DNA of 64,000 nucleotides from an uncultured archaeon (GTDB lineage: Archaea; Asgardarchaeota; Lokiarchaeia; Sigyniarchaeales; SOKP01), in the NCBI GenBank assembly GCA_964525635.1, contig CAZGJX010000002.1, positions 1 to 64,000 on the forward strand. The letters run 5' to 3'. Positions within the stretch are counted from its first letter, which is position 1. Every line of letters starts with the position of its first letter. The notes below the pieces were generated by a model, which worked only from the letters and a program-made list of their open reading frames with translations, was not told the DNA's origin and did not search any database. The position numbers and the translations under genes are program-made. Shown here piece by piece: positions 72 to 18,008 of the stretch.

Positions 72-599
72 CTATAAATATCCCATCTTATTAAGAAAAT
101 CTAAAATAATTTGTTTACTTTCATCAATATCTTGTTTATCCGTATCAACTACTATATCTGGATTGTCTGGTTCTTCAAAGGGATGGTCAATTCCAGTAAA
201 ATTCTTTATTTGACCTGCTCTTGCTTTTGCATACATACCTTTAACATCTCTTTCCTCACATACTTCAACAGGACATTTTACATAAACTAAAATATAATTA
301 CCAATTTCTTTTCTTGAATAATCTCTTATTTGATTATAAGGAGAGATAAAAGAAGCTAATACTGCTACTCCATTACGTGTTAAAAGTTTTGCAACAAAAG
401 TTACTCGTTCTATATTTTTATTTCTATCTTCTAGTGAAAAACCTAAATCCTTTGTTAGGTTTTTCCGGACAATATCTCCGTCTAAACGTTCTACTTTCAT
501 ACCTTTCCTTTTTAAATCATCAGCAACTGCATCAGCAAGTACAGTTTTTCCTGAACATGCTAATCCAGTAAACCATAATGTAAATCCTTTATGTTCCAT
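72..599 (-). CDS. cysC: Adenylyl-sulfate (APS) kinase
   Basis: GFTLWFTGLACSGKT P-loop, LDGDIVR, DLGFSLEDR, FTGIDHPFEEP. The likely start is MEHKG at 599; the ORF-track extension to 662 overlaps sat. Confidence 0.96.
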   Translation of the reverse strand: MEHKGFTLWFTGLACSGKTVLADAVADDLKRKGMKVERLDGDIVRKNLTKDLGFSLEDRNKNIERVTFVAKLLTRNGVAVLASFISPYNQIRDYSRKEIGNYILVYVKCPVEVCEERDVKGMYAKARAGQIKNFTGIDHPFEEPDNPDIVVDTDKQDIDESKQIILDFLNKMGYL

Positions 600-655
600 C
601 TTATTTTTTTTCTTATTTTTATTTATTTTTAAATTTATTAATCTAGAAATGAATT

Positions 656-1801
656 TTAACAAAAGGGATTTGAATGTTTTAAAATTACTTCAGCGACTTC
701 TGGTCTCATAATATCTGGAGTTGGTTTATTTCCAGAGTTTAAAATATCTCTAATATTAGTTCCACTAAAAAATGTATGGTATTCAGGAGGATGAGGACAA
801 ATTTTATCATTAACAACAGAATTGCATGTATTACATTTTGAAAATGATCTGAAAAATAGAGGTTGTATACCTAAGTCAGGAAAATGTTTGAAAATTTCAT
901 GAGCATCATAAGGACCATAAAAATCACCCACTCCAGCATGATCTCTTCCTATTATAATATGATCACATCCAAAATTCTTACGTGCTATAGCATGAAAAAC
1001 TGCCTCTTTTGGTCCTGCATATCTCATTTCTATTTCAAATGTACTTAGTACAACACGATCTTTTGGATAATAATATTTAATTAATGCTGAATATGATTCC
1101 AAAATTACTTTATCTAGGAAATCTCCCTTTTTTTTTTTTCCAATCACAGGATTTATAAAAAGACCATCATTAAAGGTTAATGCTGCCTTTTGTACATATT
1201 CATGACCTAAATGAGGGGGATTTCGAGTTTGGAAAGCAACAACTCTTTCCCATTTTTTTGTCTTGAATAGAACTCTGGTTTCTATAGGTTTAAGATCAAA
1301 TTCAGGAAATTCTGCTTTATGTTCCTTTATTAAATATATTTCTCCTCCTAATAAATTTTCTTTTTGATTATGAATTTTTTGTACTCCTGGATGGGAACTA
1401 TCATTTGTTCCATATACTTTTTCAGAAAAATATTTTTTATCACATTTGTATATATCTTCGATATTGATCAATGCAATTGGATTATTGGAAAAATCAGTTA
1501 AAATAGCATTATCACCAGTTTTTAAATTCTTAATTTCATCATCAGAAACATCTAAAACAATAGGAATTGGCCAGGCAATATTGTTTTCCAAATACATATG
1601 TTCTAAAACATTTAATGTATCATTTTCATTCATAAATCCCTCTAAAGGACTAAAAATTCCAAAAGATATATTTTTAATCTCTTTACAAGTTTGTAAATCA
1701 ACTGGAATTTGTTTAAATTCATTAATTTGTTCTAATATTCGACTTTTTTCCAATTTTGGCAAAGCTTTATTAATTAATGTGCCTCCATGAGGTTGTATCA
1801 T
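656..1801 (-). CDS. sat: Sulfate adenylyltransferase (ATP sulfurylase, Sat type)
   Basis: PHGG N-terminus, FSPLEGFM, AFQTRNPPHLGHE, MRYAGPKEA, GRDHAGVG; adjacent to cysC. Confidence 0.97.
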   Translation of the reverse strand: MIQPHGGTLINKALPKLEKSRILEQINEFKQIPVDLQTCKEIKNISFGIFSPLEGFMNENDTLNVLEHMYLENNIAWPIPIVLDVSDDEIKNLKTGDNAILTDFSNNPIALINIEDIYKCDKKYFSEKVYGTNDSSHPGVQKIHNQKENLLGGEIYLIKEHKAEFPEFDLKPIETRVLFKTKKWERVVAFQTRNPPHLGHEYVQKAALTFNDGLFINPVIGKKKKGDFLDKVILESYSALIKYYYPKDRVVLSTFEIEMRYAGPKEAVFHAIARKNFGCDHIIIGRDHAGVGDFYGPYDAHEIFKHFPDLGIQPLFFRSFSKCNTCNSVVNDKICPHPPEYHTFFSGTNIRDILNSGNKPTPDIMRPEVAEVILKHSNPFC

Positions 1802-1831
1802 TCTTTTTTAAACCTTTTATAGTAAATAATT

Positions 1832-2071
1832 TTAATCTAAATATCCTAAATCCCTTAGTCTTTGTTTAACAGTCTCTTCTTCTTCTTTTGTAAATGCTTG
1901 TTTCGTCTTCTCTTCTTCCTCAATTGATGATAATACTTGCCTCAAAATATAGGTAACATAGCTTGATACAGAAGAAAAACCAGTACCTTTCATTCTTTCT
2001 TTAACCTTTTCAGCTAAAGGTTTTGGAATTGAAACTGTTGTATATTCTACTCTATAATCTTCATCAGACAT
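1832..2071 (-). CDS. Ribbon-helix-helix (CopG-like) protein with C-terminal RLRDLGYLD tail
   Basis: YTTVSIPKPLAEKVK...GFSSVSSYVTYILRQ RHH pattern; first gene of the RHH-sat-cysC run. Confidence 0.85.
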   Translation of the reverse strand: MSDEDYRVEYTTVSIPKPLAEKVKERMKGTGFSSVSSYVTYILRQVLSSIEEEEKTKQAFTKEEEETVKQRLRDLGYLD

Positions 2072-2322
2072 AAGTATATTACTTTTTATAATTGTTAATT
2101 AAATATAATGATAATTAATTAAGAAAAGAAAATAGTTTTATTAAACTTTATTAAACCTTCTTTTTTTAAATTACAATTCTACCATTAGAAATGAATAATA
2201 TTTTGATAAATTATTATATTTCAAAAAAATCATAAACCTCTTATTAGAAAAATAATAAATTAAAAATAAAATAGATAGAAATGATTTAAGAAAGTTTATT
2301 TTTAGTATAGGAGATCTTATTT

Positions 2323-3192
2323 ATGAATAATAGATTAATTAAAAGAATAATCAGGAAGATTTTATATAATTTAGAGGATCGAATACAATTTGAACAATTT
2401 GATGTTAATGAGACTCTAAGAAATATCTCTAAATTATGGAATAATCTTTCAAAATATAATAACCATTTAGATCTTATTTTATCAGACAATATTTATATTA
2501 AAAAAGAAAATATAATCTATTTATTTCGAAAAAACATGATCAAGTTTTTATTAAATGGATCTCATGAAAACTCCTCAAGTAAATTAATATTGAATTCTAT
2601 TGACCATAATTCAAAAGTATTTATTGATGTGGGAGCCAATTATGGATATTATTCAATTTTAGTTGCTAAAAAATATAATATTAAAGTCTATGCTTTTGAA
2701 CCAGGAAATGAAGCATATAGTTATTTATTAAAAAACATAGCTTTGAATCAATTATATGATAATATAATACCAATTAAAATGGCATTAGGAAATACATTAA
2801 AAGAAAGTCTAATTTCAAAAGATCTTTTTGCAAAGAATCATATAGTAAATGAACATGGAAATCTCATTAGAATGACAACATTAGACAGTTATATAAAGAA
2901 GCATAATTTGGAAGCATTAGATTTTATCAAAGTAGACATAGAAGGTTTTGAACCTTTTTTTATTGAGGGAGCAAAAGAGAGTATTATGAAATATAAACCT
3001 ATGGTATTAATGGAATTGAGCAAGAATCTTCTAAAAAGATATGGAAAAAAACCCAAGGATATTTTTAATCTTATGGATTTATTAGATTATAGATGTAAAT
3101 ATGTTTTATTTGATAATAAAATAATTAATTTCGAAAATATATCTCAAAATATATTCAATAGAACCTGTAATTATTTCTTTGAACCCAAATAA
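2323..3192 (+). CDS. FkbM-family SAM methyltransferase
   Basis: FIDVGANYGYYS, VYAFEP, TLD, FIKVDIEGFE motifs. Confidence 0.92.
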   Translation: MNNRLIKRIIRKILYNLEDRIQFEQFDVNETLRNISKLWNNLSKYNNHLDLILSDNIYIKKENIIYLFRKNMIKFLLNGSHENSSSKLILNSIDHNSKVFIDVGANYGYYSILVAKKYNIKVYAFEPGNEAYSYLLKNIALNQLYDNIIPIKMALGNTLKESLISKDLFAKNHIVNEHGNLIRMTTLDSYIKKHNLEALDFIKVDIEGFEPFFIEGAKESIMKYKPMVLMELSKNLLKRYGKKPKDIFNLMDLLDYRCKYVLFDNKIINFENISQNIFNRTCNYFFEPK

Positions 3193-3272
3193 TAATTTAA
3201 GTACATATTTAATATGAATTAAACACTAAAAATTCTTAAAATATATAATGATTAAAAGTTTACAATAATAAT

Positions 3273-4274
3273 ATGGAATTTAGATATTTATTTAGCTTAT
3301 ATAAAAGATTTATTAAAGCTTACTTAAGAAAATTATATTTTAGACTCATTCTTACACCTCAGCTTACTTATAATGATATTAATGGTAAAATACTCAACTC
3401 GATAAAAAAAAATTTTAATTTTATAACAAAAATAAATATAATAAATAAACAGAGCCTTAATGAAAAAATTATTTATCTGGTTAATTACAGGGATTCACTC
3501 AAATATTCCGATAAAATTTTTAGAGATGTAAAGTTTTTTTCTTTTTTTATAAATGCTGATAGGAGTGGGCATAGTCTAGTTGGAGCAATTTTGGATGCAC
3601 ATCCTAATATTATTATCTCTCATGAAATTAATGCTTTAGTATTACTAAAAGAACATAATTTTAAGAAAAATAAAGTATACAGTAGAATTTTAGCAAAATC
3701 ATATAATCAATCTGCAAGAAAAAACAGAATAAAAAATAAATATAACTACAATATACCTTATGAATTTTCAGGCAAATTTAAAATTTTAAATATTATTGGA
3801 GATAAAAAAGGGAGTGCAACAGCTCAAATTCTTTACAATAATCCACAATTAATTTCTAGACTACAAGAAATATTTGAAAATAATTTAAAAATTATTACTG
3901 TGTTTAGGAATCCATATGATAATATTATCGCTATGTCTGTGAGAAGAAAACTTCCAATTAGTCAATGTATTCGATTATATTTTAACATAACAGAAATTTG
4001 TTATAGACTGTATAAGATATTACCAAAGGAACAAATGATAATTATAAATCATGAAGATTTAATAAACAATCCCAGTTCAGAAATAGAAAAAATATGTAAT
4101 TTTTATGGTTTATCTGCTCCAAAAGATTATCTCAATATTGTAAGACAGATCATCAATAAAAAACCTCATAATAGAAGGTATAACTATAATTGGAGGGATG
4201 AAGATTTGCATAAGATAAAACAATTTATTGAAAAATCAAAATATCAAATATTTTTTAAAGATTATAAATTCTAA
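3273..4274 (+). CDS. PAPS-dependent sulfotransferase
   Basis: RSGHSLVGAILDAHP 5'-PSB loop, RNPYD 3'-PB motif, HEDLINNP. Confidence 0.85.
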   Translation: MEFRYLFSLYKRFIKAYLRKLYFRLILTPQLTYNDINGKILNSIKKNFNFITKINIINKQSLNEKIIYLVNYRDSLKYSDKIFRDVKFFSFFINADRSGHSLVGAILDAHPNIIISHEINALVLLKEHNFKKNKVYSRILAKSYNQSARKNRIKNKYNYNIPYEFSGKFKILNIIGDKKGSATAQILYNNPQLISRLQEIFENNLKIITVFRNPYDNIIAMSVRRKLPISQCIRLYFNITEICYRLYKILPKEQMIIINHEDLINNPSSEIEKICNFYGLSAPKDYLNIVRQIINKKPHNRRYNYNWRDEDLHKIKQFIEKSKYQIFFKDYKF

Positions 4275-4319
4275 AATTTCTTTCAAATTAGATATCTATA
4301 TTGAGTTTATTTGTACTAA

Positions 4320-5765
4320 CTATAATCTAATTTTTTTTACTGCTCTATATATCTTATTTTCTTCCGATCTATATGCATTAATATACAAATTAAGGTATTT
4401 CATGAATTTTTCTTCCATATATCTTATATTCTCATCATCAGATTGATGTAAGTTATTTTTTTCATATGGATCTATTTTTAAGTTATAAAATTCATAATTC
4501 TTTAATTTCTCATTATATATTATTTTCCAATAATTATCTCGACATGATATTAATAAATAGTAATTATATTTTTTTTTTACAAGGTCATTAAAAAATTTAT
4601 CATCATCATATTTTTGAAAAACTGAACTAATAACATAATCAGAATAATTCTTAATTTCTTTCTTTATACTTAAATCTAAGATTTTTGAGCCTTTAAATTC
4701 CTGATCTTGTTTGAGATGAAACATATTCAGAATAGTTGGAGCAATATCTATACTTTGTACAAGTGCATCAACCTCTTTTTTTTTATTATAATTATGAGGT
4801 TTAATTATTAGAGGTATTCTTAGTAATTCATTATAAAGAGATTTTATGTGTCCGATTGAACCATGCTCTAAAAATGCTTCACCATGATCTGCGGTTAATA
4901 TTATATCCAACTCGTTATAAATTTCTAATTTCTTTAAATATTGGAAAAATTTTCCAATGTAATGATCAAGATAATGGATCTCTGCATTGTACAATAACTT
5001 TAGATTTTCTAATTTTTCATTATCTATATTATTGTACAAATTTGGATTATTATTCATTTTTATTGACCATTTTCTCAATTCTAATTTATCTAAATTAGAA
5101 ATTTGTTTATTAGATATTTTTTTTATAAATTCTAAAGGAGGATAGTATGGTCCATGAGGATCCATAAAATGAATCCAGAGAAAGAATTCTGAATTGTAAT
5201 TTTTGTCAAGCCATGATAAAGTCTTATCAAGAGTTAATTTAGCATTAGTATATGGGACATTAAGGTTCAGTTTATTATTATTATTATTTAAATTATTATT
5301 TCTATTTTCATTTATCTTATATTCATTTTTCGAAATTTTTTTTTCCTTATTGAAGATTTTTGAAAAGCTTAAGAGGATTTTGCGTGTTTTTTTTTTTTTA
5401 GATTCTACTTTATCATACATATCAAAAAAATTATTAAAACCTATATGAAAATTACGATCTTTTCCTAAATATGGATTTGAATGAATTCCACATGTATTAA
5501 TCTTATTATTTTGGAGAATTTTAGCTATTGTTTGTTTTTCTAAGTTTAGAGGGGTATAAAAATTATATATTCCAGGTATTTCAGAAACAAAAAGTGAATA
5601 AAAAGCTGGTGGTGTATTTGGTCCATTAGTTATACAATTATTATAAATAACTGAATGAGTACAAAATTTATCAATGTTTGGAGTTAGATTGTTTTTATTT
5701 CCATATATAGCTAAACGATCCCGTCTTAAACAATCAATTGTTATAAGAATTACTCTTCTTTTCAT
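4320..5765 (-). CDS. Sulfatase-like hydrolase/transferase (AlkP superfamily, Thr at nucleophile position)
   Basis: LITIDCLRRD, TPNID, NTPPAF, WIHFMDPHGPY, TADHGEAFLEHG, YNLKIDPYE. Confidence 0.9.
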   Translation of the reverse strand: MKRRVILITIDCLRRDRLAIYGNKNNLTPNIDKFCTHSVIYNNCITNGPNTPPAFYSLFVSEIPGIYNFYTPLNLEKQTIAKILQNNKINTCGIHSNPYLGKDRNFHIGFNNFFDMYDKVESKKKKTRKILLSFSKIFNKEKKISKNEYKINENRNNNLNNNNNKLNLNVPYTNAKLTLDKTLSWLDKNYNSEFFLWIHFMDPHGPYYPPLEFIKKISNKQISNLDKLELRKWSIKMNNNPNLYNNIDNEKLENLKLLYNAEIHYLDHYIGKFFQYLKKLEIYNELDIILTADHGEAFLEHGSIGHIKSLYNELLRIPLIIKPHNYNKKKEVDALVQSIDIAPTILNMFHLKQDQEFKGSKILDLSIKKEIKNYSDYVISSVFQKYDDDKFFNDLVKKKYNYYLLISCRDNYWKIIYNEKLKNYEFYNLKIDPYEKNNLHQSDDENIRYMEEKFMKYLNLYINAYRSEENKIYRAVKKIRL

Positions 5766-5870
5766 AATTAATATAAGTTTTTTTTCTTTTAACTGATAAT
5801 ATTTAATAATATCATTTTCTTATTTCTTTTCTCTTTATTATATTCTATCTAAATAAAATATTAAAAAAAA

Positions 5871-7148
5871 TTAATATCCAAACTTGTTAATTAAATCTCC
5901 TAAAATATTATCTATAATTTCAATTTGATTTGGTTGTAATCTCTTTTTCCAATATCCAACCCTATTTTTATCTAATTTTGAATAATTAATAAAATCCTGC
6001 TTTAAACCAAGAAAATTCTTTATCTTTTTAAAAATTTCTTTTGGATTATTAATTAGATCCTCCAATTTTATTTCCAAATATTCATTTTCTGACGGTTTAA
6101 CTTCATTTAAAACTTCAATTATTCTTTCTATGGTATTTTTTGTCCAATAGGTTGCACTTATTATATCATTTGGTCCCCAATAGGTTCTTATAAGAGAATA
6201 GACTAATTCTCGTGGATCTCTTTTTATATGAATAAACTTTGCATTTGGAAATAATTTATATAAGAATTTTAATTCCAAAATATTATTCGGAGTTTTTTCA
6301 CACCAAATCTTTTTTTTCTCTTCATGTAGCTTTTTAAGAAATAATGATTCAACTAGATTTCTACATAAACTTAAGTATTCTTCTTCATGGAACTTTTTTG
6401 GAATTATGATTTTATTTTTATTATAATTACATAATGTTCTTATATAGGAGAATAATCTTTTAATATCATGATAACAATCATTTATCCTATATTTATATGG
6501 TCTTTTATAAAATAAAATACTCTTGTATAATGTATGAAATAGAAAAAACTTATATTTTTTTTTTAATCTTAATCTTTTTATTAATACTGTAAAGTCTTTT
6601 TCTAAATATTCCTTATATTCTGGAAAATATCGTAAAAATAGAATTTTAAGAATTCTAATTTTAATATGGGATACTTTTAAAAATAAGCTAATAAAATAGG
6701 CAATTATACTGTGAATGGGATGATATTCAGATCTAATTGAAGATATAGTATAATAGTTTCTGCTATAAGCTATATCATAATATAGACTTTTAATAAAATC
6801 TGACATTATTGTTGTATAGAATTTTTTACCATAGAAATTTCGAATATCTCCTCTATTTGGATAAGTCTTTGATGATATTTTATCAACTAACATTTTTTTT
6901 GAAAACCGATAAATAGCAATATCTGCTTTATTTGGATGGTATGAATAACATAAATGGGTTGCTAAATCCTTTAATCCATCACATTCTATTATAAAACGTG
7001 TTTCTTGGGGAATTGAATAGATTTCTGGATGTTTTCCTAACAATTCTCTTAGAATTGTAGTCCCACTCTGTCCAGAACCTCCTAAAAAAATTTTTAAACT
7101 TATTTCATTCAAATTAGATTCAAACACCCTTTCTTGGGAGATTTTCAA
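5871..7148 (-). CDS. PAPS-dependent sulfotransferase
   Basis: GGSGQSGTTILRELLGKHP, WCEKTPNN, IHIKRDPRE, LEDLINNP, C-terminal FGY. The TTG start is uncertain. Confidence 0.9.
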   Translation of the reverse strand: MKISQERVFESNLNEISLKIFLGGSGQSGTTILRELLGKHPEIYSIPQETRFIIECDGLKDLATHLCYSYHPNKADIAIYRFSKKMLVDKISSKTYPNRGDIRNFYGKKFYTTIMSDFIKSLYYDIAYSRNYYTISSIRSEYHPIHSIIAYFISLFLKVSHIKIRILKILFLRYFPEYKEYLEKDFTVLIKRLRLKKKYKFFLFHTLYKSILFYKRPYKYRINDCYHDIKRLFSYIRTLCNYNKNKIIIPKKFHEEEYLSLCRNLVESLFLKKLHEEKKKIWCEKTPNNILELKFLYKLFPNAKFIHIKRDPRELVYSLIRTYWGPNDIISATYWTKNTIERIIEVLNEVKPSENEYLEIKLEDLINNPKEIFKKIKNFLGLKQDFINYSKLDKNRVGYWKKRLQPNQIEIIDNILGDLINKFGY

Positions 7149-7155
7149 TTTTAAT

Positions 7156-8208
7156 TTATTTCTCGATGATATTAACTATTCTTTTCATAATTATATTCCA
7201 ATTATAATTTTTAACAACAAAATTCATCCCTTTATAAGCTATATTTTCTCTTAAATCTTTGTTTTTCAAATAATATTCAATTTTATTTAGCAATTCTTTT
7301 TTTGTATTAAACCAATCTAAATGTTCTTTTTTTTTAAAGAATAATTCTAAATCTTTGCAATATTCCGTTAATAGAAATGAACCTGTACCCATTGCTTGAA
7401 AAACTCTAATAGAAAAACCATATTTACCTTTTGTAAAATTTAAAATGATTCTCGAACTTCTATATAAATTAACTAATGTATCTAAATAAACTGGAGCAAG
7501 GTTCCAATCCTTACCAAAAGTAGTTGCGGAAATTCCATTATTCTTCAAATATTTAATATATATTTCACGTTTTATCGTTTTAGTTCCTATGAAAATCACG
7601 TCAATTTCTTTTTTTCGTTTTTTAGGATAAAATTTCTTAATATCCAAACCTTGAGTAATAAAATAACTATTTTTTTGCTTTCTTTTAAATAAACTGTAAA
7701 TTGTAGAAAATGTAGCGCTTGAATAATTACACAATGAAGAATATTTTTCAGCATTGAATTCAATAGCAACATTCAAAGGATCCATGAAAAAATACCAAGT
7801 CTTTCCGTATTTATTGATTTTTGGGATAAGCTTATAATTTATTCTATCTGATTTTGAAAGAAAAATTAGATCATATTTTTTTTTTTTTACTTCATTAATT
7901 AACTGTTTATTTACTTTCCATCTTCCATAAAGATAATATCTTTCAAATTCAGATAAAATTCTAAAAAATGAGATTTTATTTCTATATTTTTGATTTAGTT
8001 TTGATATTTTTTTAAAAAAAGTAGAGCAATAATTATTTATTGAAGATTTATAATGGCTATTTTTAATATTATTATTTTTTGCATTATTATTCTGTTTATA
8101 TCGAAAATCAAAACATACAACTTTATGCCCTAAATTCTTTAATTCGTGAACCATTGGAATATTTGTTGACCATTTGTTATGAAATACTCCAACAAATAAA
8201 ATCTTCAT
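7156..8208 (-). CDS. Glycosyltransferase (GT-B, CgeB/Glyco_trans_1_2-like)
   Basis: DVIFIG, YRSSRIILNF, SIRVFQAMGTGSFLLT, RENIAYKG. Confidence 0.85.
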   Translation of the reverse strand: MKILFVGVFHNKWSTNIPMVHELKNLGHKVVCFDFRYKQNNNAKNNNIKNSHYKSSINNYCSTFFKKISKLNQKYRNKISFFRILSEFERYYLYGRWKVNKQLINEVKKKKYDLIFLSKSDRINYKLIPKINKYGKTWYFFMDPLNVAIEFNAEKYSSLCNYSSATFSTIYSLFKRKQKNSYFITQGLDIKKFYPKKRKKEIDVIFIGTKTIKREIYIKYLKNNGISATTFGKDWNLAPVYLDTLVNLYRSSRIILNFTKGKYGFSIRVFQAMGTGSFLLTEYCKDLELFFKKKEHLDWFNTKKELLNKIEYYLKNKDLRENIAYKGMNFVVKNYNWNIIMKRIVNIIEK

Positions 8209-8495
8209 TATTCTTCTTTATAATCATATATTATATTCTGTTGATAATGTAAGATTGCTAAAAAAATTTTTTTATTATTTAATACATCAAAATTTTATAA
8301 ACTTATATTTCATGGAAATTTATTCAATTCCCATGTATTTCTTTTCTTATAGTAGATAATATATTCTTGATTCCTTTGATTTTAAATATATTATAAAAAA
8401 ATTATAAGTATTATCAAATATTTTGTTAACTAATCTTATTACATTTGATTAAATTTATATATTCATTCTAAAATTGAACTTAGCTAAAAAATAAT

Positions 8496-9356: not shown

Positions 9357-9361
9357 TTAAT

Positions 9362-10285: not shown

Positions 10286-10300
10286 TATAGAAAAAAAAAT

Positions 10301-11557
10301 ATGAATATACTACTTCTCACTTTTAGTTTTTACCCAGAAAAAGGAGGAATCTCTCACACAATCAACTCAATGTGTAAATTCTTTAATGAAAAAGATCATA
10401 CCTTCATAGTTTTAAACCCAAATTACAATGGAAAAAATATTCATAATCTTCTGATTAGAGATCAAACTCTAAAGAAAGAGATAAAAAAAATCTTTCATAA
10501 AAAATTTCTTCTTTCCTTATATATTATCATAAAAAATTTGTTTCGAAAAAACAATATTCCTTTATTAGAAAGATTAAATTTAATTTTATATTTATTTCTA
10601 AAACCAAAAATATTAATTAGAACAGTAGAGAATTTTCAAAAATTCTATCCATTTCTTCAAAAAACAAATTTCAATTTGATTGTTACTGCTGATTGTGGAT
10701 TCCCACTTGTGTTGGGATTAATCATATCAAAAACATTTAACAAAAAAATAGTGTCTTTAGCTCATGGTATTGATTTTCAAATAGAAAATTATTTTTCATT
10801 AAAATATTTTTATTTAAAAAACACTGATTTTTTTATACTTAGCAATATTTGGTTAAAAAAACTTTTTCAAAAAATATATGATATAAATGACAAGAAAATT
10901 GATATAATAAACCGTGGTATGTTTTTGGAGGATTATTTCATAGAGAAATCCAAAGAAACACTTCGAATTGAAAATAATATTCCTATTGATAAATTTCTCT
11001 TGTTAAGTGTTGGTCGACAAAATAAAAGAAAAAATTATCAATTAGTTATTAGAGCAATAAGAAAAATTAAAGATATAAGACTAAACTTTAATGGATTATA
11101 TTATTTAATTGGTGAAGGGGATTACACTTCAAATTTGAAGCATTTAGTTATAGAATTAGATCTCTCAGAAGATATAAAATTCTTAGGGATACTTGAAAAT
11201 AAAAAAAGAAATGAATTCTATAAAATGTCAGATATATTTTTAATGCCTTCATTAACAGAAAAAAATGACGTTGAGGGATTTGGTATAGTTTTTCTTGAAG
11301 CAAATTACTATAAGGTTCCCGTAATTGGTTCTACATCTGGAGGTATTGTAGAAGCTATTAAAGATGGAGAGAATGGGATTTTAGTAAATCCACGTAATTT
11401 AGATGATATAGTAAATAAAATATTATATCTATATGATAATAAAGATCAGAGGATAAAAATGGGGGAGATAGGACATCAAAGAGTTATTAAGGACTATGAT
11501 TGGACTAATATTGGGAAAAAATATGAAAAAACATTTAAAAAAGCAATTAATTTTTAA
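10301..11557 (+). CDS. GT4 glycosyltransferase
   Basis: GGI N-terminal motif, VGRQNKRKN, EGFGIVFLEA. Confidence 0.92.
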   Translation: MNILLLTFSFYPEKGGISHTINSMCKFFNEKDHTFIVLNPNYNGKNIHNLLIRDQTLKKEIKKIFHKKFLLSLYIIIKNLFRKNNIPLLERLNLILYLFLKPKILIRTVENFQKFYPFLQKTNFNLIVTADCGFPLVLGLIISKTFNKKIVSLAHGIDFQIENYFSLKYFYLKNTDFFILSNIWLKKLFQKIYDINDKKIDIINRGMFLEDYFIEKSKETLRIENNIPIDKFLLLSVGRQNKRKNYQLVIRAIRKIKDIRLNFNGLYYLIGEGDYTSNLKHLVIELDLSEDIKFLGILENKKRNEFYKMSDIFLMPSLTEKNDVEGFGIVFLEANYYKVPVIGSTSGGIVEAIKDGENGILVNPRNLDDIVNKILYLYDNKDQRIKMGEIGHQRVIKDYDWTNIGKKYEKTFKKAINF

Positions 11558-11611
11558 TTGATTTGAATTTTATATTATATTAAATTCAAAATTAAAATAA
11601 TAATAGCAAAG

Positions 11612-12859
11612 ATGTTCACACTCAATCAAATAATATCTTTTAACCGTATTTTTAACCTGATGTCATCAATATGGTTTATTATTTTTATGATTTTTCTTAT
11701 AATTATATATCATTTGATTATATACTTAATCAGAGATAAGAAGTATATTATTGATTATAATAGTTATAATGATCCAGATAATGTATCTATTGATGATCTA
11801 AATTATCTGCCACTTGTTAATATTATTATTCCATCATGGAAAGAGGGACAAAATTTTAAAGTATGTTTAGATTCAATTAAAAACTTATCATATCCTAAAT
11901 TAAAAGTTATAATAAATGCAGGAGGAAATGATGAGACGATAAAAATTGCAAACACTTTCAAACAATATGATAATTTTATAATATTACATCAGAAATTTGG
12001 AGCAGATAGACCATCTTTAGGTAAGATAAGAGCAATAAATGAATGTCTTGATTATATTAAAGATGGTTTAATATATTTTATAGATGCAGATGCAATTGTA
12101 CAAGATGAAACCCTGTTAAGAATTATTTATCCAATAGTTAATCAAGAAAAATATGTAGTAGTTTCAGGGAGAAGTTTAACAGATTCACTAAAAGAAAAAG
12201 CTCTTTCTAAATATCTAAGATTAAATCGAAACAGAACATTTCATGGTGATTTTTCAAGAAATGATCATAATATAATCTCTGGTTCGAATACATGTATTAA
12301 GTATGAAGTTATTGAGAGAATCAGTAAGTTCAATGAAGAAAGAGGGATTGCTACAGATAAATCTATGGCACTTGATATTAATAATGTTGGATACAAAATT
12401 TATAAATTAACACATCCAAATTCAAGAATGCTAAACCAGAACATGCCAAGTAATTTTAAAGCATGGAGACGTCAGAGATCTATATGGCAAACAAATGATT
12501 TTAAATACATTATTAAATTTAAAAAAAGAGGAAAATTCCTAAAGTTTTTATTTTTAACTTTTTTGTCTCTTTATTTATTGATTTTTCCTATATTTTTATT
12601 TTTTAATATTACCTTATTTCTGTTTGGATTTTATTTATTAATTTGGATATATTTTCAGAAAATTAGAAAGATTATTTTTTCTCTTAACACAGATGAAAAA
12701 GAATCTGGTTTTGATATTAATCTAATCTTTTATTTTAAAGTATTTTGTTTTATTTTATTAGAACTATATATCAATATAATATTGATATATGATCTTATAG
12801 TATATTTTAAAAAAAATAAAAAAAAAACTGAAAAAGTGATATTTTTTTTCCAATTATAG
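11612..12859 (+). CDS. GT2 glycosyltransferase, membrane-anchored
   Basis: VNIIIPSWKE, FIDAD (DxD), RQRSIW (QxxRW-like), N- and C-terminal TM segments. Confidence 0.85.
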   Translation: MFTLNQIISFNRIFNLMSSIWFIIFMIFLIIIYHLIIYLIRDKKYIIDYNSYNDPDNVSIDDLNYLPLVNIIIPSWKEGQNFKVCLDSIKNLSYPKLKVIINAGGNDETIKIANTFKQYDNFIILHQKFGADRPSLGKIRAINECLDYIKDGLIYFIDADAIVQDETLLRIIYPIVNQEKYVVVSGRSLTDSLKEKALSKYLRLNRNRTFHGDFSRNDHNIISGSNTCIKYEVIERISKFNEERGIATDKSMALDINNVGYKIYKLTHPNSRMLNQNMPSNFKAWRRQRSIWQTNDFKYIIKFKKRGKFLKFLFLTFLSLYLLIFPIFLFFNITLFLFGFYLLIWIYFQKIRKIIFSLNTDEKESGFDINLIFYFKVFCFILLELYINIILIYDLIVYFKKNKKKTEKVIFFFQL

Positions 12860-13047
12860 ATTCTTCCTTTTCGGATTTCTATTTCGAGATAGAAGCTTTT
12901 TATAATAGACTATTATATATTATATTTATCTGTTTTTTTGATAAAGATAAATTTATAAAAAAAAAACAATTTACGAACTCAAGAATTTTTATCATCTAAA
13001 AAGATAAGATAGTAAAATGATTTAATTAAAAATCATTGAGAATTAAT

Positions 13048-13815
13048 ATGATAATTTCTCATAAAAATAAGTTTATTTACATAAAAACGAGGAAAACTGC
13101 AAGTACTTCTATACAAATTCTTTTCGCTAGGTTTTGTGGGGATCAAGATATTTTAACTCCAATTATTCATCCGACTACTAAAAAAGGCATCATATATAAT
13201 AAAATGGCAAGAAATTATAAGATATTAATAAGTAACTTAAAACTTATAAAATATAGTTTTTATTATAGTATTAGGAAGGGTAGAGGACTAAGTTTTATCA
13301 AGGATTTTTTAAAAACTATCTTTAAAAATCCAAAGAAAAATATATATAGATTATTTTTTCAAGGATTTCACACTCATGATTCTGCTGAGAAAATTAAGAC
13401 CAAAGTAGGGTCCATAATATGGAATGATTATTTTAAATTTACTTTTGAAAGAAATCCTTGGGATAAATTAGTATCATATTATTATCATGTGTACTCAAAT
13501 TCAGATCCTTCTTTTAAGAATTTTGATACATGGATAAAATCCTTGAAAATGAACCAATATAGACAACCTTATAATTTTCTTTTATATACTTTTAAAAATA
13601 GAGTAATTTTAGATTTTATTGGAAAATATGAGAATTTACATAAGGATTTAAATTTTATTTTAAATAAATTAAACTTACCAATGAAAGAATTACCTAAAGA
13701 AAAAACAAATTATAGAAAAGAAAAGAAATATAAGAAATACTATAGTGATGAATTAAGAGATTTAGTCAATAAAAAATACGCAAAAGAAATAAACCTTTTC
13801 AATTTTAAATTTTAA
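13048..13815 (+). CDS. Sulfotransferase family 2 protein
   Basis: MIISHKNKFIYIKTRKTASTS, YFKFTFERNPWDKLVSYY, DFIGKYENL. ATG at 13048 is preferred over TTG at 13036. Confidence 0.9.
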   Translation: MIISHKNKFIYIKTRKTASTSIQILFARFCGDQDILTPIIHPTTKKGIIYNKMARNYKILISNLKLIKYSFYYSIRKGRGLSFIKDFLKTIFKNPKKNIYRLFFQGFHTHDSAEKIKTKVGSIIWNDYFKFTFERNPWDKLVSYYYHVYSNSDPSFKNFDTWIKSLKMNQYRQPYNFLLYTFKNRVILDFIGKYENLHKDLNFILNKLNLPMKELPKEKTNYRKEKKYKKYYSDELRDLVNKKYAKEINLFNFKF

Positions 13816-13865
13816 AAATTTTATACAAATTATTTTTTCAAATCTAAATTCTAATTAAAGGAAAA

Positions 13866-15398
13866 TCATTGATTTTGATTTTTAAAGCAATTAAGAATAT
13901 TGCCTTTTAAATCTTGATTTATAGGTAATCCAAAGTAATTTAATATAGTTGGGACAATATCTTTTAGATTTGCGTGGGTTTTCATATTTTCTTTTACATT
14001 TTTTCCATGAATCACTAATATACCTTCTTCACTATGTTTTCCAATTGCAAAATCAGTATATTTACTAATATCTTGAAGAAATTCTTCTGTATTTTGGTAA
14101 AGGCTAGTGAAAGAATATCCTTTCGTTGGTTTTATTATTAAATCGGGGATTAATTCTGGTTGGTTACCACTATAATAATCATCTTTTTCATATATTTTAT
14201 CAACAATTCTATTATTATTTTTTGGATCCTTTATTTGATAGAATTTATTTTTAAGATAATTTATGATTTTTAGTTTTTTTTCTCCTTCAGTTAAGATAAA
14301 AATTAATCCATAAAGACTGATTCCCATAGGATAAACTCTTGATTTTTTCCAATCTATAAAATTATTAAATACTTCTGTTCCTTTTAATTCGTTTCTGTAT
14401 ATTTTTAATTCTAACTTTTTAAAAACATTGAACAATGATATTTTATCTAATTTAAGTTTTATAATTATTTTTTTTGAAAGTTTTCTTAGAAGAGATTTCC
14501 AGAAATTGGTTTTAAATTTTAATAAACCCTCTTTATAAAGCCAATCTCCCAATAGAAACTGTTTTTTATGAGATTCACATCCATGATCAGATAGAATTAC
14601 AGTAAGTAAATCCCCTTTATTATTTCTTAAAAATTCCTCTCTTAATGTTTCAATACAAAAATCTAACCATTTATGAAATGTTTTAAAAGCATATGATCTT
14701 ATTTCAGGATTATATAATATGTTCTCTTTATCAAAGTATCCCCATAAAACATGTTGAAGTATATCATTAGCCTGAAAATTAACCATTAAGATATCAATTT
14801 TATAATTATTTAACAGCCATACGCATACTTTTGTTCTATCTTTTATATTTTTAATTCTATTTTCAATAAAATCTTTTATGTTGTAATGAGGATTTTTAAA
14901 TCTCACATCTTCAGAATATTGAAATTGATAATCAGGTATTTTATTTAAAATATTCTGCTTCAAGCTTGATGGATATGTAAAATTAGAATTTAAAGAAGGG
15001 GTTAATATACCACTAACAATAAAACCATTTACTTTTTTTGGAGGATAGGTCATTGGGACATTAACTACCGCAATTTTCTTACCTACTTTGCTCAGAATCT
15101 CCCATATAGTATTTTTTAAGAAATCAGAGTTAACCATATCTATATTTTTTGTCTTCTTATTAAAACAGTAAAATTCATAGATATGGTCTTCTAAGCAATC
15201 TCTCCCTGTTTGTATAGTACCCCACGCTGCAGGAGATATTGGTGGTATGGTGGATGCTATCGGACCAAATGTACCATTAGATTTTAGTTTTTTTAAATAT
15301 GGCATATATCCACTATCAATTATATCATTAAATAGGTCCCACGAGCCACCATCAAGACCTATAACAAGAATTTTTCTATTAAAAATATTCATTTCCAT
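13866..15398 (-). CDS. AlkP-superfamily phosphodiesterase/nucleotide pyrophosphatase-like protein
   Basis: VIGLDGG, STIPPISPAAW..TG, NVPMTYPP, LSDHG, GKHSEEG, DIVPTIL. Confidence 0.9.
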   Translation of the reverse strand: MEMNIFNRKILVIGLDGGSWDLFNDIIDSGYMPYLKKLKSNGTFGPIASTIPPISPAAWGTIQTGRDCLEDHIYEFYCFNKKTKNIDMVNSDFLKNTIWEILSKVGKKIAVVNVPMTYPPKKVNGFIVSGILTPSLNSNFTYPSSLKQNILNKIPDYQFQYSEDVRFKNPHYNIKDFIENRIKNIKDRTKVCVWLLNNYKIDILMVNFQANDILQHVLWGYFDKENILYNPEIRSYAFKTFHKWLDFCIETLREEFLRNNKGDLLTVILSDHGCESHKKQFLLGDWLYKEGLLKFKTNFWKSLLRKLSKKIIIKLKLDKISLFNVFKKLELKIYRNELKGTEVFNNFIDWKKSRVYPMGISLYGLIFILTEGEKKLKIINYLKNKFYQIKDPKNNNRIVDKIYEKDDYYSGNQPELIPDLIIKPTKGYSFTSLYQNTEEFLQDISKYTDFAIGKHSEEGILVIHGKNVKENMKTHANLKDIVPTILNYFGLPINQDLKGNILNCFKNQNQ

Positions 15399-15424
15399 TC
15401 TCTAAATTCAACAATATTTTAAAA

Positions 15425-16729
15425 TTATTTTATAATCTCAAGACACTTACCAGTCATATAAGCAGGTTTTTGAATATTAAACAAATTTAATAAAGTTGGT
15501 GCAATATCTTCATAATTAATGCTATTAAATTGTTTAGATTTTATATTTTTACCATATGCCATGAATAATCCTTCTTGTGTATGAAGAATTGCATTTCTTC
15601 CTTTTGTAATAAACATAGAAGGATTATGATTAAACATATATTTTTCATTTAGAACTATGAATAGACTGGGGAAATCTTTTAAATTAGTAGAGATAATCTT
15701 TTTTATTTTTTTTTCCTTAAGAAGTGATTCAATAATTATTTTTTCTTTTTTTTTATCCTCTCCTTTCAAAAATAAACCACCAACATTTGAATTATAACTA
15801 AAAGCTTTTGATATCTCTATTTTATTTTTATCAGTTTTTTTTTTTTTAGTATTACTTTTCTTTTTTTTTGATATTTTTTGAAATCTTTTTTTAAATAAAT
15901 ATAATTTTTCATAATCTATTTTTAATATTGGTCTAAAAAAATCATAGATTTTGGAAATAAGACTATATATTTTATGTTGACTTGATTTATTAATGAATAT
16001 AAGACCTTTTTTTTCCAACCAACGAGTCATATTAAAATCATGTTTATAAAATCTTAAACCATGATCACTAAATATAATTAGATTGTCAATTTCACCACTA
16101 TTAAGAATCTGACCTATAAAATCATCTATCTTTTTATATCCTAAATATATATAATTTTGAATTAATGGTTGAGATAGCCTAGTATGATGAGAAATAGAAT
16201 CCGGCATCCTTACAACATAAGTTAATAGATTGTAATCTTCATATATTTTTTCTAAAAACAAATCTTTCTTTATTTTAAATGCCTTAAAGATGTCTTTTAT
16301 TGTTTTTCCATTAATTATCCAATTCTCTTTTAATTTGAATTCTAATTCCTTTGGAAAACAACTTATTTTAGGAGATAATAATCCTGTAATCATCTCACCA
16401 TTAATATTCCACGCAGGATAGGTTCCTGGAACATTTAATACTAATTGTCTTAAATCCTTGTGTGAGAAAATAGATCTTTCTCTCCAAATAAATGAATTAA
16501 AAAGACCTTTTTCTGGATGAGTAAACCAATAATATCCAAGTTGTTGAGGATTTTGTCCAGAAAACATACAAGGCCAAGATGGAATTGTTATTGGTGGCAT
16601 TGTAACGCAAAGTTTTGAAGATACTCCCTCATTGATTATTTTTTTGAAATTAGGTAATATTTTTTTTTTTAATAGAGGTTTTATGGATTCAAAGCAACCA
16701 CCATCAATACCTATTATTACATTTTTAAT
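15425..16729 (-). CDS. AlkP-superfamily phosphodiesterase-like protein; probable ATT start at 16729
   Basis: TMPPITIPSW, NVPGTYP, FSDHG, DIAPTLL. The frame stays open 43 codons upstream of the ORF-track ATG (16600) and encodes KNVIIGIDGG, homologous to the neighbour's KILVIGLDGG. Confidence 0.85.
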   Translation of the reverse strand: MKNVIIGIDGGCFESIKPLLKKKILPNFKKIINEGVSSKLCVTMPPITIPSWPCMFSGQNPQQLGYYWFTHPEKGLFNSFIWRERSIFSHKDLRQLVLNVPGTYPAWNINGEMITGLLSPKISCFPKELEFKLKENWIINGKTIKDIFKAFKIKKDLFLEKIYEDYNLLTYVVRMPDSISHHTRLSQPLIQNYIYLGYKKIDDFIGQILNSGEIDNLIIFSDHGLRFYKHDFNMTRWLEKKGLIFINKSSQHKIYSLISKIYDFFRPILKIDYEKLYLFKKRFQKISKKKKSNTKKKKTDKNKIEISKAFSYNSNVGGLFLKGEDKKKEKIIIESLLKEKKIKKIISTNLKDFPSLFIVLNEKYMFNHNPSMFITKGRNAILHTQEGLFMAYGKNIKSKQFNSINYEDIAPTLLNLFNIQKPAYMTGKCLEIIK

Positions 16730-16949
16730 TTAAATCCCCTAATCTTTCTTATTATTCTTGATCTATCTTATATTATGGAAATATATCATTTAAATAAAAG
16801 TTTTTGTTCTTTTTATTCAAGATCATTAATTAAATGTTTATAAAATATTTTATATAAGATTTAGTTAATTTAAAAAGATAAAATCATATAATTGGATCTT
16901 TTTCTCTGGAAAATAGATTAAAAATCATTATTTTGTATATAATATTATT

Positions 16950-18008
16950 CTACATTAATAGACCACTGATGAATTTAAAATATTCTTCAGCAGCTTTTTC
17001 CCATGAATATATCTTAACAATTTCAAGACCTCTTTCCCTCATACTTATTCTTAAATCTTGATCCTTATAAATATCGATGATTAATTCTGCTAATTTTTTA
17101 TAATTAAAAGGAGGAAAATAAATCGGAAAGTCTTTATATATTTCCCTAAATACAGGAATATCTGAACATAAAACTGGGAGTCCAGAGGAGGCAGACTCTA
17201 GCCCAGGTGCCCCCCATCCTTCGTATATAGAGGGAAAGACTAGAATATTGCATAAATTATAGATTTCTCTCAATCTATCATTAGTTATTCCATTTAAATA
17301 AATAATATTTTTTTCCAATCCCATTTTTTTTATTAAATCTTGGAAAATTGGTTTACCAATCCGGATTAATAAAATCTTTTTTATTCTTTTTTTAACAATA
17401 TAATAGGATTTTAATAATGATAGAAAATTTTTTCTCGTTTCTTCTGTTCCTACATGTAATATTTTAAAATATTCAGGATAAAATGAATTAATTTTTAATA
17501 ATTTTTCATCAGATATTGGATAAAACATCTTTTTATTTATACCATTTTTAATAACTTTTATTTTTTCTTTTGGAAAACCTAATCTTTTAATCAATTCATT
17601 TTTAGTAAATTCTGATATTGCGATAATATATCTACATTTCTTTAATCCTGAAAGTATATATTTTTGCAATAAAGAATTATTTCGAATATTTTTTTTTTCC
17701 AAAAAAGTATAAATATCATGACAAGTGACAATTGTTTTTGATTTATCAAGAAAATGTACTAAATCACTATGAAATTGAGCAGGTATATGATTAATAACTT
17801 CATTTTTATTGCTACTTAATTTACACTGTATTGGATAATTAAAAAATCTCTTATATAAGAAATCGATTTGGTTTTTGGGTGGTTTATAGTATAAATAAGA
17901 GATTCCAATATTTCTTTGGTTTATTAATCGTTTATCTAATTCAATTTGTCTTCTTAAGATTCCATTTATATTATCTAACTTTCTACCAATATAATTTAAT
18001 ATTTCCAT
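16950..18008 (-). CDS. GT4 glycosyltransferase
   Basis: VTCHD, AISEFTK, VGTEETRKN, FPSIYEGWGAPGLE, SDIPVFRE. Confidence 0.92.
   Translation of the reverse strand: MEILNYIGRKLDNINGILRRQIELDKRLINQRNIGISYLYYKPPKNQIDFLYKRFFNYPIQCKLSSNKNEVINHIPAQFHSDLVHFLDKSKTIVTCHDIYTFLEKKNIRNNSLLQKYILSGLKKCRYIIAISEFTKNELIKRLGFPKEKIKVIKNGINKKMFYPISDEKLLKINSFYPEYFKILHVGTEETRKNFLSLLKSYYIVKKRIKKILLIRIGKPIFQDLIKKMGLEKNIIYLNGITNDRLREIYNLCNILVFPSIYEGWGAPGLESASSGLPVLCSDIPVFREIYKDFPIYFPPFNYKKLAELIIDIYKDQDLRISMRERGLEIVKIYSWEKAAEEYFKFISGLLM

Follow-up and report, generated by a model that had tools for sequence, protein, structure and literature searches.

The DNA analysed here (the window) spans the first 64 kb of a contig of 113 kb (CAZGJX010000002.1) in the genome (4.45 Mb, 100% complete, 26.8% G+C) of an uncultured Lokiarchaeia archaeon from salt-marsh sediment. 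Its first 18 kb combine a cassette for the synthesis of 3′-phosphoadenosine 5′-phosphosulfate (PAPS), encoded by sat and cysC, with an island of genes for sulfotransfer, glycosyl transfer, methylation and export, among which are three enzymes of the alkaline-phosphatase (AlkP) fold, two of them of the NPP (nucleotide pyrophosphatase/phosphodiesterase) type (Table 1). The island (positions 2323–18008) is most likely one strain’s low-GC filling of a hypervariable surface-glycan locus beside the PAPS cassette, as judged from gene families, base composition and synteny. The best-supported reading of the two together, and one that we consider probable, is that PAPS is used to make a sulfated, methylated glycan that is exported to the surface.

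A sequence-only reading of the same DNA had proposed a self-contained locus for a sulfated, O-methylated and exported glycan. Listing of the open reading frames (ORFs) with their Pfam and NCBIfam matches recovered every gene that it had named at its coordinates, and added one that it had missed, the CopG-like gene of the sat operon (1832–2071). The proposal stands with regard to PAPS for sulfotransfer and to the glycan locus; for the ABC transporter, no exporter-specific family match was found. The locus is not self-contained, because sat–cysC is a cassette shared across the family that serves sulfotransferases at six or more loci, and because the genes for a priming glycosyltransferase (contig C1), AglB (contig C98), sugar nucleotides, a sulfate carrier and a phosphatase for 3′-phosphoadenosine 5′-phosphate (pAp) lie outside it.

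Table 1. Predicted products of the sat operon, the glycan island and the first gene of the right flank. Positions are those of the window; GT, glycosyltransferase; ST, sulfotransferase; TM, transmembrane.
Predicted product	Position (strand)	Family matches	Features
CysC, APS (adenosine 5′-phosphosulfate) kinase	72–602/662 (−)	PF01583, 206.8 bits	ORF from TTG 662; likely start ATG 602
Sat, ATP sulfurylase	656–1801 (−)	PF01747, 285 bits	PUA_2 and ATP-sulfurylase domains
CopG/RHH-like protein	1832–2071 (−)	no Pfam match	79 amino acids; part of the sat operon
FkbM-family S-adenosylmethionine methyltransferase	2323–3192 (+)	PF05050, 61 bits; TIGR01444, 83 bits versus 37.7	
ST-A, PAPS-type (Sulfotransfer_3/1)	3273–4274 (+)	PF13469, 46.1 bits; PF00685, 40.2 bits	
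Sulfatase-family AlkP enzyme	4320–5765 (−)	PF00884, 128 bits	soluble; Thr nucleophile; no TM segment or signal peptide
ST-B, PAPS-type (Sulfotransfer_3)	5871–7148 (−)	PF13469, 92.5 bits	insertion between the two PAPS-binding motifs
GT (Glyco_trans_1_2)	7156–8208 (−)	PF13524, 85 bits	48% identical to a gene of the G324 island
ABC-2 permease	8496–9356 (+)	PF01061, 40.7 bits	weak YadH/DrrB/NodJ matches
ABC ATPase, DrrA/NodI type	9362–10285 (+)	PF00005, 96 bits; TIGR01188 (drrA), 232 bits	below the drrA cut-off of 312
GT4a, GT4 glycosyltransferase	10301–11557 (+)	PF00534, 129.6 bits	40–45% identical in 7 sister islands
Membrane GT2	11612–12859 (+)	PF00535/PF13641/PF13632	N-terminal TM segment, GT-A domain, C-terminal TM segments (minimal cellulose-synthase-like)
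ST-C (Sulfotransfer_2)	13036–13815 (+)	PF03567, 51 bits over the full model	likely start ATG 13048
NPP1, NPP-fold AlkP enzyme	13866–15398 (−)	PF01663, 97.6 bits	cytoplasmic; complete bimetal site; Ser nucleophile
NPP2, NPP-fold AlkP enzyme	15425–16729 (−)	PF01663, 55.6 bits	first ATG 16600; likely start ATT 16729
GT4b, GT4 glycosyltransferase	16950–18008 (−)	PF00534, 88.8 bits	last island gene
RNase PH	18104–18832 (−)	PF01138 and PF03725	first gene of the right flank, followed by pheA, pheT and pheS

A hypervariable glycan locus between conserved flanks

The island is bordered on both sides by genes that are well conserved in the family: sat is 67–77% identical in 65 of the 120 family genomes, and the RNase PH gene 65–85% identical in 85 of them. 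The two genes share a contig, at a distance of 7–46 kb, in 24 family genomes from six genera, and are on the same strand in all but one of these (G019). We opened 13 further sat–RNase PH intervals, which together with the window make 14 versions of the locus, and found glycan genes in all 13. Recurrent genes of these sister islands encode GT2 and GT4 glycosyltransferases, methyltransferases, nucleoside diphosphate (NDP)-sugar 4,6-dehydratases, NeuB with a CMP-sugar synthetase, and AlkP enzymes of the sulfatase-family and NPP2-like kinds. Five TagF-like CDP-glycerol glycerophosphotransferases, four myo-inositol-1-phosphate synthases, three NeuB and five rhamnosyl O-methyltransferase-like proteins (L053–L069) point to teichoic-acid-like and nonulosonic-acid-bearing glycans in related strains. 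Because the sister islands carry glycosyltransferases, Wzx or ABC-2 transporters, NDP-sugar enzymes, NeuB and TagF-like genes at the same site, the product of the island in the window is probably a glycan as well.

The content of the site changes from genome to genome. The island has a G+C content of 22.8%, versus 26.8% for the genome and 27–28.5% for the flanks, which places it in the lowest 0.3% of 16-kb windows; its genes are all single copy, and their best homologues are spread over different genomes at 29–64% identity (72–85% for the flanks). The mosaic assembly that had been suspected from the sequence is borne out by these figures, and synteny across the family shows a site conserved in at least 24 genomes and an island of variable content. 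One relative (G158) has the order cysC, NPP gene, sat, CopG-like gene, a 17.8-kb island, RNase PH, pheA, pheT and pheS; its island encodes a Sulfotransfer_2 protein 48% identical to ST-C, three more sulfotransferases, GT2 (44%), GT4 (40%) and sulfatase-family (36%) proteins, a methyltransferase and Wzx. In most relatives, an NDP-sugar 4,6-dehydratase/epimerase gene (~80% identity) lies near RNase PH at the edge of the island (L051, L053–L069); it is absent from this genome (window 18009–18103), which has only paralogues of 30% identity on contig C23.

We found no tRNA gene at the island borders (1–30 kb), only AT-rich low-complexity repeats (1–19 kb) and no Pfam integrase among the ORFs. An origin as an integrative element was dropped for want of a tRNA gene, a meaningful repeat or an integrase, in favour of replacement between conserved flanks.

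The contig begins at window position 1, and cysC lies 71 nucleotides from this contig end. Identical contigs covering positions 1–19500 occur in four other salt-marsh metagenome runs, and independent salt-marsh contigs span both island borders, at the RHH/FkbM and the GT4b/RNase PH junctions. As independent contigs bridge both junctions, the gene arrangement is not an assembly chimaera. Joints that appeared in the contig comparison were rated artefacts, their sides being only 20–21 nucleotides of AT-rich sequence.

Within the genome, these 18 kb of 4.45 Mb hold three of the eight detected sulfotransferase genes, the only sat and cysC and all three members of the AlkP clades. A Poisson model gives about 6e-6 for three or more sulfotransferases in a stretch of this length, and the clustering of sulfotransferase, sat–cysC and AlkP genes is far beyond chance.

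A lineage-wide PAPS cassette that feeds sulfotransfer

Sat and CysC form a predicted PAPS synthesis pair, with full-length matches above curated equivalog cut-offs (Sat, 503.1 bits to PRK04149, cut-off 387, and 387.7 bits to sopT, cut-off 322.95; CysC, 245.3 bits to TIGR00455 (apsK), cut-off 138.7). The cysC gene is single copy in the genome and 74–86% identical in relatives. Upstream of sat, in every relative examined and in other families of the order as well, lies the CopG-like gene, the position of which matches copG of a published Pyrococcus yayanosii cluster (PMC8268124). The acidic tail of its product, EEE..(V/I)..RL..LGY(I/L)(D/E), is invariant across three families of the order, also where the operon has no NPP gene (orthologues L036–L050). 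Endings of the form [LMIF]GY followed by 0–2 residues occur in 7 of the 2706 ORFs of at least 150 amino acids in the genome, three of which are CysC, ST-B and a sulfotransferase on contig C51.

An NPP-type AlkP gene lies between sat and cysC in genera g5, g6 and g11 and in family f4 (L037, L039, L040, L041, L043, L049 and L050), and is missing from the genus of the window (g1; window 602–656) and from g7, g9 and g12. At another locus (L042), this operon NPP gene looks truncated (336 amino acids) and has no cysC match behind it. A genome of a sister family (G030) has two fused sat–cysC genes (579-amino-acid frames) at L045 (G030:C30) and L044 (G030:C27), each with a Sulfotransfer_3 gene 3–7 kb away.

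The same cassette has been published for other archaea. PYCH_17520–17560 of P. yayanosii comprise copG, ATP sulfurylase, DHH pApase, type I phosphodiesterase/nucleotide pyrophosphatase and APS kinase genes (PMC8268124), and TON_1704–1707 of Thermococcus onnurineus the same set (PMC4463584, PMC8268124). The NPP-type gene of Thermococcales is proposed to remove pyrophosphate (PPi) and is named a pyrophosphatase in T. onnurineus (PMC8268124, PMC4463584). In yet other archaea, a sulfotransferase gene adjoins the cluster (PMC8268124). The order of a small CopG-like gene, sat and cysC and the absence of downstream reductases are shared between these clusters and the window; by contrast, the genus of the window has lost the NPP gene, there is no DHH pApase, and the cassette adjoins a 16-kb glycan island with three sulfotransferases. 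The trio of CopG-like gene, sat and cysC is an archaeal cassette that has been published and that extends across the lineage.

The published cluster is annotated as ‘assimilatory sulfate reduction’ (PMC8268124), and sat–cysC could in principle serve the assimilation or dissimilation of sulfur with no relation to the island. This we regard as extremely improbable and largely refuted. The sulfite reductase family (NIR_SIR) was found in none of 41 genomes of the order (this genome and 40 relatives) and in 11 of 14 control genomes; CysH and CysD were not found in the genome; and the only PAPS_reduct-like match in this 100%-complete genome, which is below threshold, is GMP synthase. The Thermococcales papers likewise found no working downstream reductases (PMC8268124, PMC4463584). 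The earlier observation that the window has no PAPS or sulfite reductase therefore extends to the whole genome, and the link between sat–cysC and assimilatory reductases that would have told against a glycan locus did not appear. As no sulfite reductase was found, the sole PAPS_reduct-like match is GMP synthase and the genome has at least eight sulfotransferase genes, at six loci and five of them outside the island, PAPS here feeds sulfotransfer.

Three canonical sulfotransferases

The island encodes three predicted canonical PAPS-dependent sulfotransferases, each with a match above the Pfam gathering score and with both the 5′-phosphosulfate-binding (5′-PSB) and the 3′-phosphate-binding (3′-PB) motif (ADRSGHS and RNPYD in ST-A, GQSGTT and RDPRE in ST-B, RKTASTS and RNPWD in ST-C). 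The earlier count of three sulfotransferases of distinct types, one of them Sulfotransfer_2-like, was correct: they belong to Sulfotransfer_3/1, Sulfotransfer_3 and Sulfotransfer_2. ST-A is single copy and has neither a signal peptide nor a TM segment, and ST-C has no TM segment. Because these proteins lack a signal peptide or membrane anchor, sulfation would be cytoplasmic, where PAPS is made.

Searches of the PDB with phmmer gave only marginal SULT matches for ST-A and nothing meaningful for ST-C, for which two beta-lactamase matches (E = 0.086) were taken as chance. The top PDB matches of ST-B are human TPST2 and TPST1 (E = 8.5e-11), with the 5′-PSB and 3′-PB motifs aligned with those of TPST2; there is also a weak NoeE match far below the cut-off. 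No homologue of ST-B was found in its own genus or family, and a scan of contigs with ST-B returned only distant bacterial relatives (28–36% identity) without synteny. Among 5.8e9 proteins, it has only 18 homologues, one of which is named menaquinone sulfotransferase in its source.

ST-C is the only Sulfotransfer_2 protein of the genome. Its nearest relatives (46–52% identity) carry the labels Promethearchaeota or Hermodarchaeota; proteins of Neobacillus, Symploca and Halieaceae come next, and the 301 genomes of the phylum contain a single close homologue, the one in the G158 island. The likeness to eukaryotic glycosaminoglycan sulfation that the sequence-only reading had drawn from this protein is not supported: its relatives are proteins of Asgard metagenome-assembled genomes and then of bacteria, it has no TM segment, and genes for uronic acids, epimerases or hexosamines are absent from the island. 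We found no evidence that this sulfation is ancestral to the sulfation of eukaryotic glycosaminoglycans.

AlkP-fold enzymes of the island

The sulfatase-family protein has its best PDB match in 6hhm_A (E = 3.5e-20). Its T50-P-P-A-F aligns with C-A-P-S-R of 6hhm and S-T-P-A-R of 7oz8, that is, with the formylglycine motif C/S-x-P-x-R, and (T/S)-P-x-x-F is found in all 120 of its homologues examined, most of them Asgard. Because the threonine motif replaces C/S-x-P-x-R, the protein is not a canonical formylglycine sulfatase; a sulfate-degrading role was rejected on account of the missing motif and the cytoplasmic location. Homologues are present in 6 sister islands. The N-glycan sulfotransferases Agl30 (VNG1056C) and Agl31 (VNG1057C) of Halobacterium salinarum have the sulfatase/AlkP fold, and the soluble Agl31 most resembles PDB 6HHM (PMC11980604). 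The fold and the shared best PDB match make the sulfatase-family protein a candidate relative of Agl30/31, a lead only; haloarchaeal names are absent from its top 120 homologues.

NPP1 and NPP2 are placed in the NPP clade of the alkaline-phosphatase superfamily, with all ligands of the bimetal site kept. In NPP1, which had no phmmer match in the PDB, D212, H216, D271, H272 and H455 are invariant, as are the GxDG and PPI(T/S) motifs, and its AlphaFold model (pLDDT 82.7) has ENPP5/4/6/7, Xac NPP and PhnA as top Foldseek matches (TM-score 0.65–0.70 relative to target). NPP2 is 46–56% identical to proteins of the G018, G140 and G356 islands. The two are the only relatives of the operon NPP in the genome, and the only members of the three AlkP clades in the genome are those of the island. 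NPP1 (26–30%) and the pair overall (23–30%) are only distantly identical to the operon NPP of relatives; they probably stand in for it, or may act in the glycan pathway.

The earlier reading had listed three AlkP-fold enzymes without a role; all are present, but the start of the third gene probably moves upstream to ~16729. The metal-ligand motif GIDGG of NPP2, in the form (L)IKN(V/L)IIGIDGGCFE, is encoded upstream of the first ATG, GTG or TTG, and the same arrangement is found in five NPP2-like genes of four genomes (window 16600–16743 (−); L067:14650–14770; L067:16018–16150; L058:4676–4750; L054:4080–4290). The motif is preceded by a Shine–Dalgarno-like GGTG or AGGGGA, a TAA stop stands directly before the ATT in the window, and the start region is identical in independent contigs. 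This looks like a conserved non-canonical start (AUU/AUA) rather than a pseudogene.

A complex model of NPP1 with the CopG-like protein reached a median score of 0.41, versus 0.00 for the best of three controls, with at least 70% of contacts shared between runs and a partner pLDDT of at least 67. In calibration, 58 of 80 solved complexes passed the mark, as did 2 of 110 mismatched pairs, counts that apply only approximately here because custom alignments were supplied; passes at or below 0.60 comprise 7 solved complexes and both passing mismatches, and a pass in this range is more often wrong than right unless the pairing was already likely, so that the model lends weak support to the pair.

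Predicted methylation, glycosyl transfer and export

The FkbM-family methyltransferase is only 25–34% identical to the FkbM genes of sister islands. No other island gene is as conserved as that of the membrane GT2, which recurs in 10 of the 13 sister islands (35–47% identity). It has a weak match to PgaC_IcaA (59 bits, residues 22–351) and to PDB 6yv7 (E = 4e-5, residues 61–301), a crenarchaeal mannosyltransferase assigned to N-glycan synthesis. GT4b is 54–55% identical in the G356, G018 and G191 islands.

The presence of an ABC-2 permease and its nucleotide-binding subunit within a glycan locus agrees with the general gene pattern of ABC-dependent glycan export (Wzm/Wzt, KpsMT and TagGH), and on this ground the pair is a putative glycan exporter. 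The permease is 35–49% and the ATPase 50–64% identical in 6 sister islands; those with the ATPase are all without Wzx. Across the 14 versions of the locus, a panel search found an ABC-2 pair in 7, a Wzx-type flippase in 7 and both in none. This alternation, with no version found to hold both, is an argument for a lipid-linked glycan as the cargo of the ABC-2 pair. Neither an exporter-specific family match nor a carbohydrate-binding domain of the Wzt C-terminal kind was found (best match drrA, 232 bits), and the tail of the ATPase has only a weak DrrA1-3_C match.

Components for the remaining steps are found elsewhere in the genome: an AglH-like priming transferase on contig C1, a 1226-amino-acid AglB frame on contig C98 (G000:C98:11372–12544), an Inositol_P-family gene on C196, the product of which could remove pAp, and a weak SulP match on C6. 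On C1 (G000:C1:32464–32937 and C1:40512–41423), the AglH-like gene lies 8 kb from GT4 paralogues of island genes, which suggests a second glycosylation cluster there.

Proposed pathway and alternative explanations

In the pathway that we favour, Sat and CysC, assigned by family scores, would make PAPS from sulfate and ATP in the cytoplasm. At the inner membrane face, four glycosyltransferases, including the recurrent membrane GT2, would assemble an oligo- or polysaccharide on a lipid carrier; the FkbM enzyme would O-methylate it; and three unrelated soluble sulfotransferases, the PAPS-binding motifs of which are present, would sulfate different positions. The sulfatase-family enzyme may contribute as a relative of the Agl30/31 N-glycan sulfotransferases, and the two NPP-fold enzymes may replace the NPP gene that relatives keep in the sat–cysC operon. 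The ABC-2 transporter would then carry the finished lipid-linked glycan across the membrane, in place of the Wzx of other versions, after which the glycan could be passed to surface proteins by AglB or kept as a surface polymer.

Several observations weigh against this pathway. The acceptors of the sulfotransferases are wholly inferred, and the likeness of the sulfatase-family protein to Agl31 is one of fold and best PDB match. The ATPase is of the DrrA/NodI type, scores under every family cut-off and has no glycan-binding domain of the Wzt type. Genes for a priming transferase, an oligosaccharyltransferase, a polymerase or sugar nucleotides are missing from the island. The five further sulfotransferase genes sit at other loci, and the co-occurrence of sat with Sulfotransfer_3 is loose: among 41 relatives, 19 have both, 7 only sat and 7 only the sulfotransferase, with at least two of the last group carrying another APS kinase. 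Canonical sulfotransferases are present in 6 of the 14 versions of the locus (three in the window, four in G158, two in G358 and one each in G018, G345 and G319), so that 8 of 14 lack one and 4 of 14 have neither a sulfotransferase nor an AlkP gene. Because 8 of the versions are without a canonical sulfotransferase, adjacency to the PAPS cassette is not proof of coupling.

The product might instead be a sulfated glycolipid, with GT2 and the GT4 enzymes glycosylating an archaeal lipid, the head group sulfated as in haloarchaeal sulfoglycolipids and ABC-2 or Wzx acting as the flippase. GT2, the one constant gene across islands, weakly matches the lipid-directed GT2s HpnB and CruG as well as PgaC and NodC; GT4a and GT4b weakly match diacylglycerol glucosyltransferases and synthases of lipoteichoic-acid-anchor glycolipids (MGlcDAG synthase, Dgs and IagA/BgsA); and a priming phosphoglycosyltransferase is missing from the island. 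We nevertheless think a glycolipid unlikely, given that all of these lipid-GT matches are far under the family cut-offs, that NeuB, CMP-sugar synthetase, TagF-like proteins and Wzx of sister islands are typical of lipid-linked oligo- or polysaccharides, and that 6yv7, the closest solved relative of GT2, is assigned to N-glycan synthesis. Nor do we put much weight on non-glycan acceptors, such as protein tyrosine (including that of the CopG-like tail), peptides or small molecules, with the island as a hotspot of accessory genes. The tyrosylprotein sulfotransferases TPST2/1 are the best solved relatives of ST-B, the tyrosine-bearing CopG-like tail behind its acidic run is invariant across the order, similar rare endings occur on CysC, ST-B and the C51 sulfotransferase, one ST-B homologue is named for menaquinone and sulfotransferases occur at five other loci; set against this, the TPST likeness is limited to PAPS-binding regions that are common to the whole Pfam family, the first three transcription units in the island all combine a sulfotransferase gene with one for a methyltransferase, a glycosyltransferase or an exporter (the fourth holds the NPP genes and GT4b), and the G158 island again joins four sulfotransferases with glycosyltransferases and Wzx. 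On balance such acceptors are quite improbable.

A more serious question is whether the role of the three AlkP-fold enzymes is confined to PAPS metabolism, where they would remove PPi, pAp, APS or PAPS, with no part in the glycan; this is possible, and we hold it as a tentative alternative for these genes. The operon NPP of relatives corresponds, by position and by family annotation, to the phosphodiesterase/nucleotide pyrophosphatase gene of Thermococcales (PMC8268124, PMC4463584); the genus of the window has lost it; NPP1 and NPP2 are its sole relatives in the genome; the NPP1 model matches nucleotide pyrophosphatases; and the model of NPP1 with the CopG-like protein weakly favours a tie to the operon. 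On the other hand, NPP1 and NPP2 are far less similar to the operon NPP than sat is among relatives (23–30% versus 67–77%), NPP2-like and sulfatase-family genes also occur in islands of genomes that keep the operon NPP (G158, G018 and, judged by the identity of its sat, G140), the sulfatase-family clade has a published sulfotransferase precedent (PMC11980604), and the Inositol_P-family product could remove pAp. We also considered that the locus might combine two unrelated classes of sulfate transfer drawing on the PAPS cassette, the three PAPS sulfotransferases and AlkP-fold enzymes (the sulfatase-family clade with its Thr/Ser nucleophile, widespread among Asgard archaea, and perhaps the NPP-fold paralogues). 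The latter class would, as Agl30/31 would, pass through a covalent sulfo-enzyme intermediate, with the tyrosine tail of the CopG-like protein docking an NPP-fold enzyme and so coupling the supply of PAPS to its use. This we regard as doubtful. A sulfated, methylated and exported surface glycan made with PAPS remains the reading that we favour.

Comparison with known systems

The pattern matches that of bacterial O-antigen and capsule loci, as far as the analogy goes: conserved flanks, replaced content, low GC and Wzx or ABC transporters alternating at one site. It differs from them in that no Wzy, chain-length regulator or ligase was recognized in the locus, the carrier would be dolichol and the ATPase has no Wzt-type domain. 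Rhizobial Nod-factor decoration, with NodPQ, NodH/NoeE, NoeI, NodC and NodIJ, is comparable; the matches of ST-B to NoeE, of the ATPase to NodI and of GT2 to NodC are weak, and all are far below the cut-offs.

The sulfated capsule locus of Vibrio sp. KMM 8419 contains PAPS genes, sulfotransferases and an ABC exporter, and the joint occurrence of PAPS and sulfotransferase genes has been called a hallmark of sulfated polysaccharide synthesis (PMC11641403). As in the window, ATP sulfurylase and APS kinase genes lie beside sulfotransferases, glycosyltransferases and an ABC exporter in strain-specific DNA of lower GC. In contrast to the Vibrio locus, the window has an archaeal host, a homo-oligomeric Sat instead of CysDN, no KpsDES or outer-membrane parts, PAPS genes that form a conserved flank rather than a second copy within the island, and AlkP-fold genes.

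In H. salinarum, the dolichol-linked glycan is also methylated (PMC11980604). The likeness to the window lies in an archaeal host and in the sulfatase/AlkP fold, with soluble Agl31 and the 4320–5765 protein sharing 6HHM as best match. The H. salinarum genes, however, sit in a cluster anchored by aglB, whereas aglB of the present genome is on contig C98; and no canonical sulfotransferases are reported for H. salinarum and the sulfate donor is not discussed (PMC11980604), whereas the window has three such sulfotransferases.

Source genome and other genes of the window

Several genes point to an Asgard archaeon (Promethearchaeota) as the source, in agreement with the sequence-only reading, which had called this probable: a full-length actin (PF00022, 443 bits) with three paralogues, a Rad51-type RadA, an archaeal PheRS and leucine-rich-repeat (LRR) proteins. 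The homologues nearest to ST-C and to the sulfatase-family gene are labelled Promethearchaeota, Lokiarchaeota, Thor-, Hermod- and Odinarchaeota. Outside the locus, the window contains two LRR proteins (29972–30865 (+) and 38747–40483 (+)) and a 1575-amino-acid ORF without a Pfam match (50429–55156 (−)).

Implications

A literature search yielded no publication on sulfotransferases or sulfated glycans of Asgard archaea, and when a glycoproteomic study of P. syntrophicum was searched, sugars containing sulfur were mentioned there only for the Sulfolobus controls. Loci of this kind are well known in bacteria and have not yet been described for the Asgard phylum. If the proposed pathway is correct, some Lokiarchaeia-type Asgard archaea would be coated with sulfated, methylated glycans that vary from strain to strain, a variable surface pattern as seen under pressure from viruses, partners or grazers. 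Were the doubtful combination of two sulfate-transfer classes also true, Asgard archaea would have heavily sulfated glycocalyces that vary between strains and depend on a sulfation chemistry not yet described biochemically. For assay, the locus provides three canonical sulfotransferases along with three candidates of the AlkP fold and, if our reading holds, would name concrete users of PAPS for a cassette that is widespread in archaea and has been of unclear purpose since 2009.

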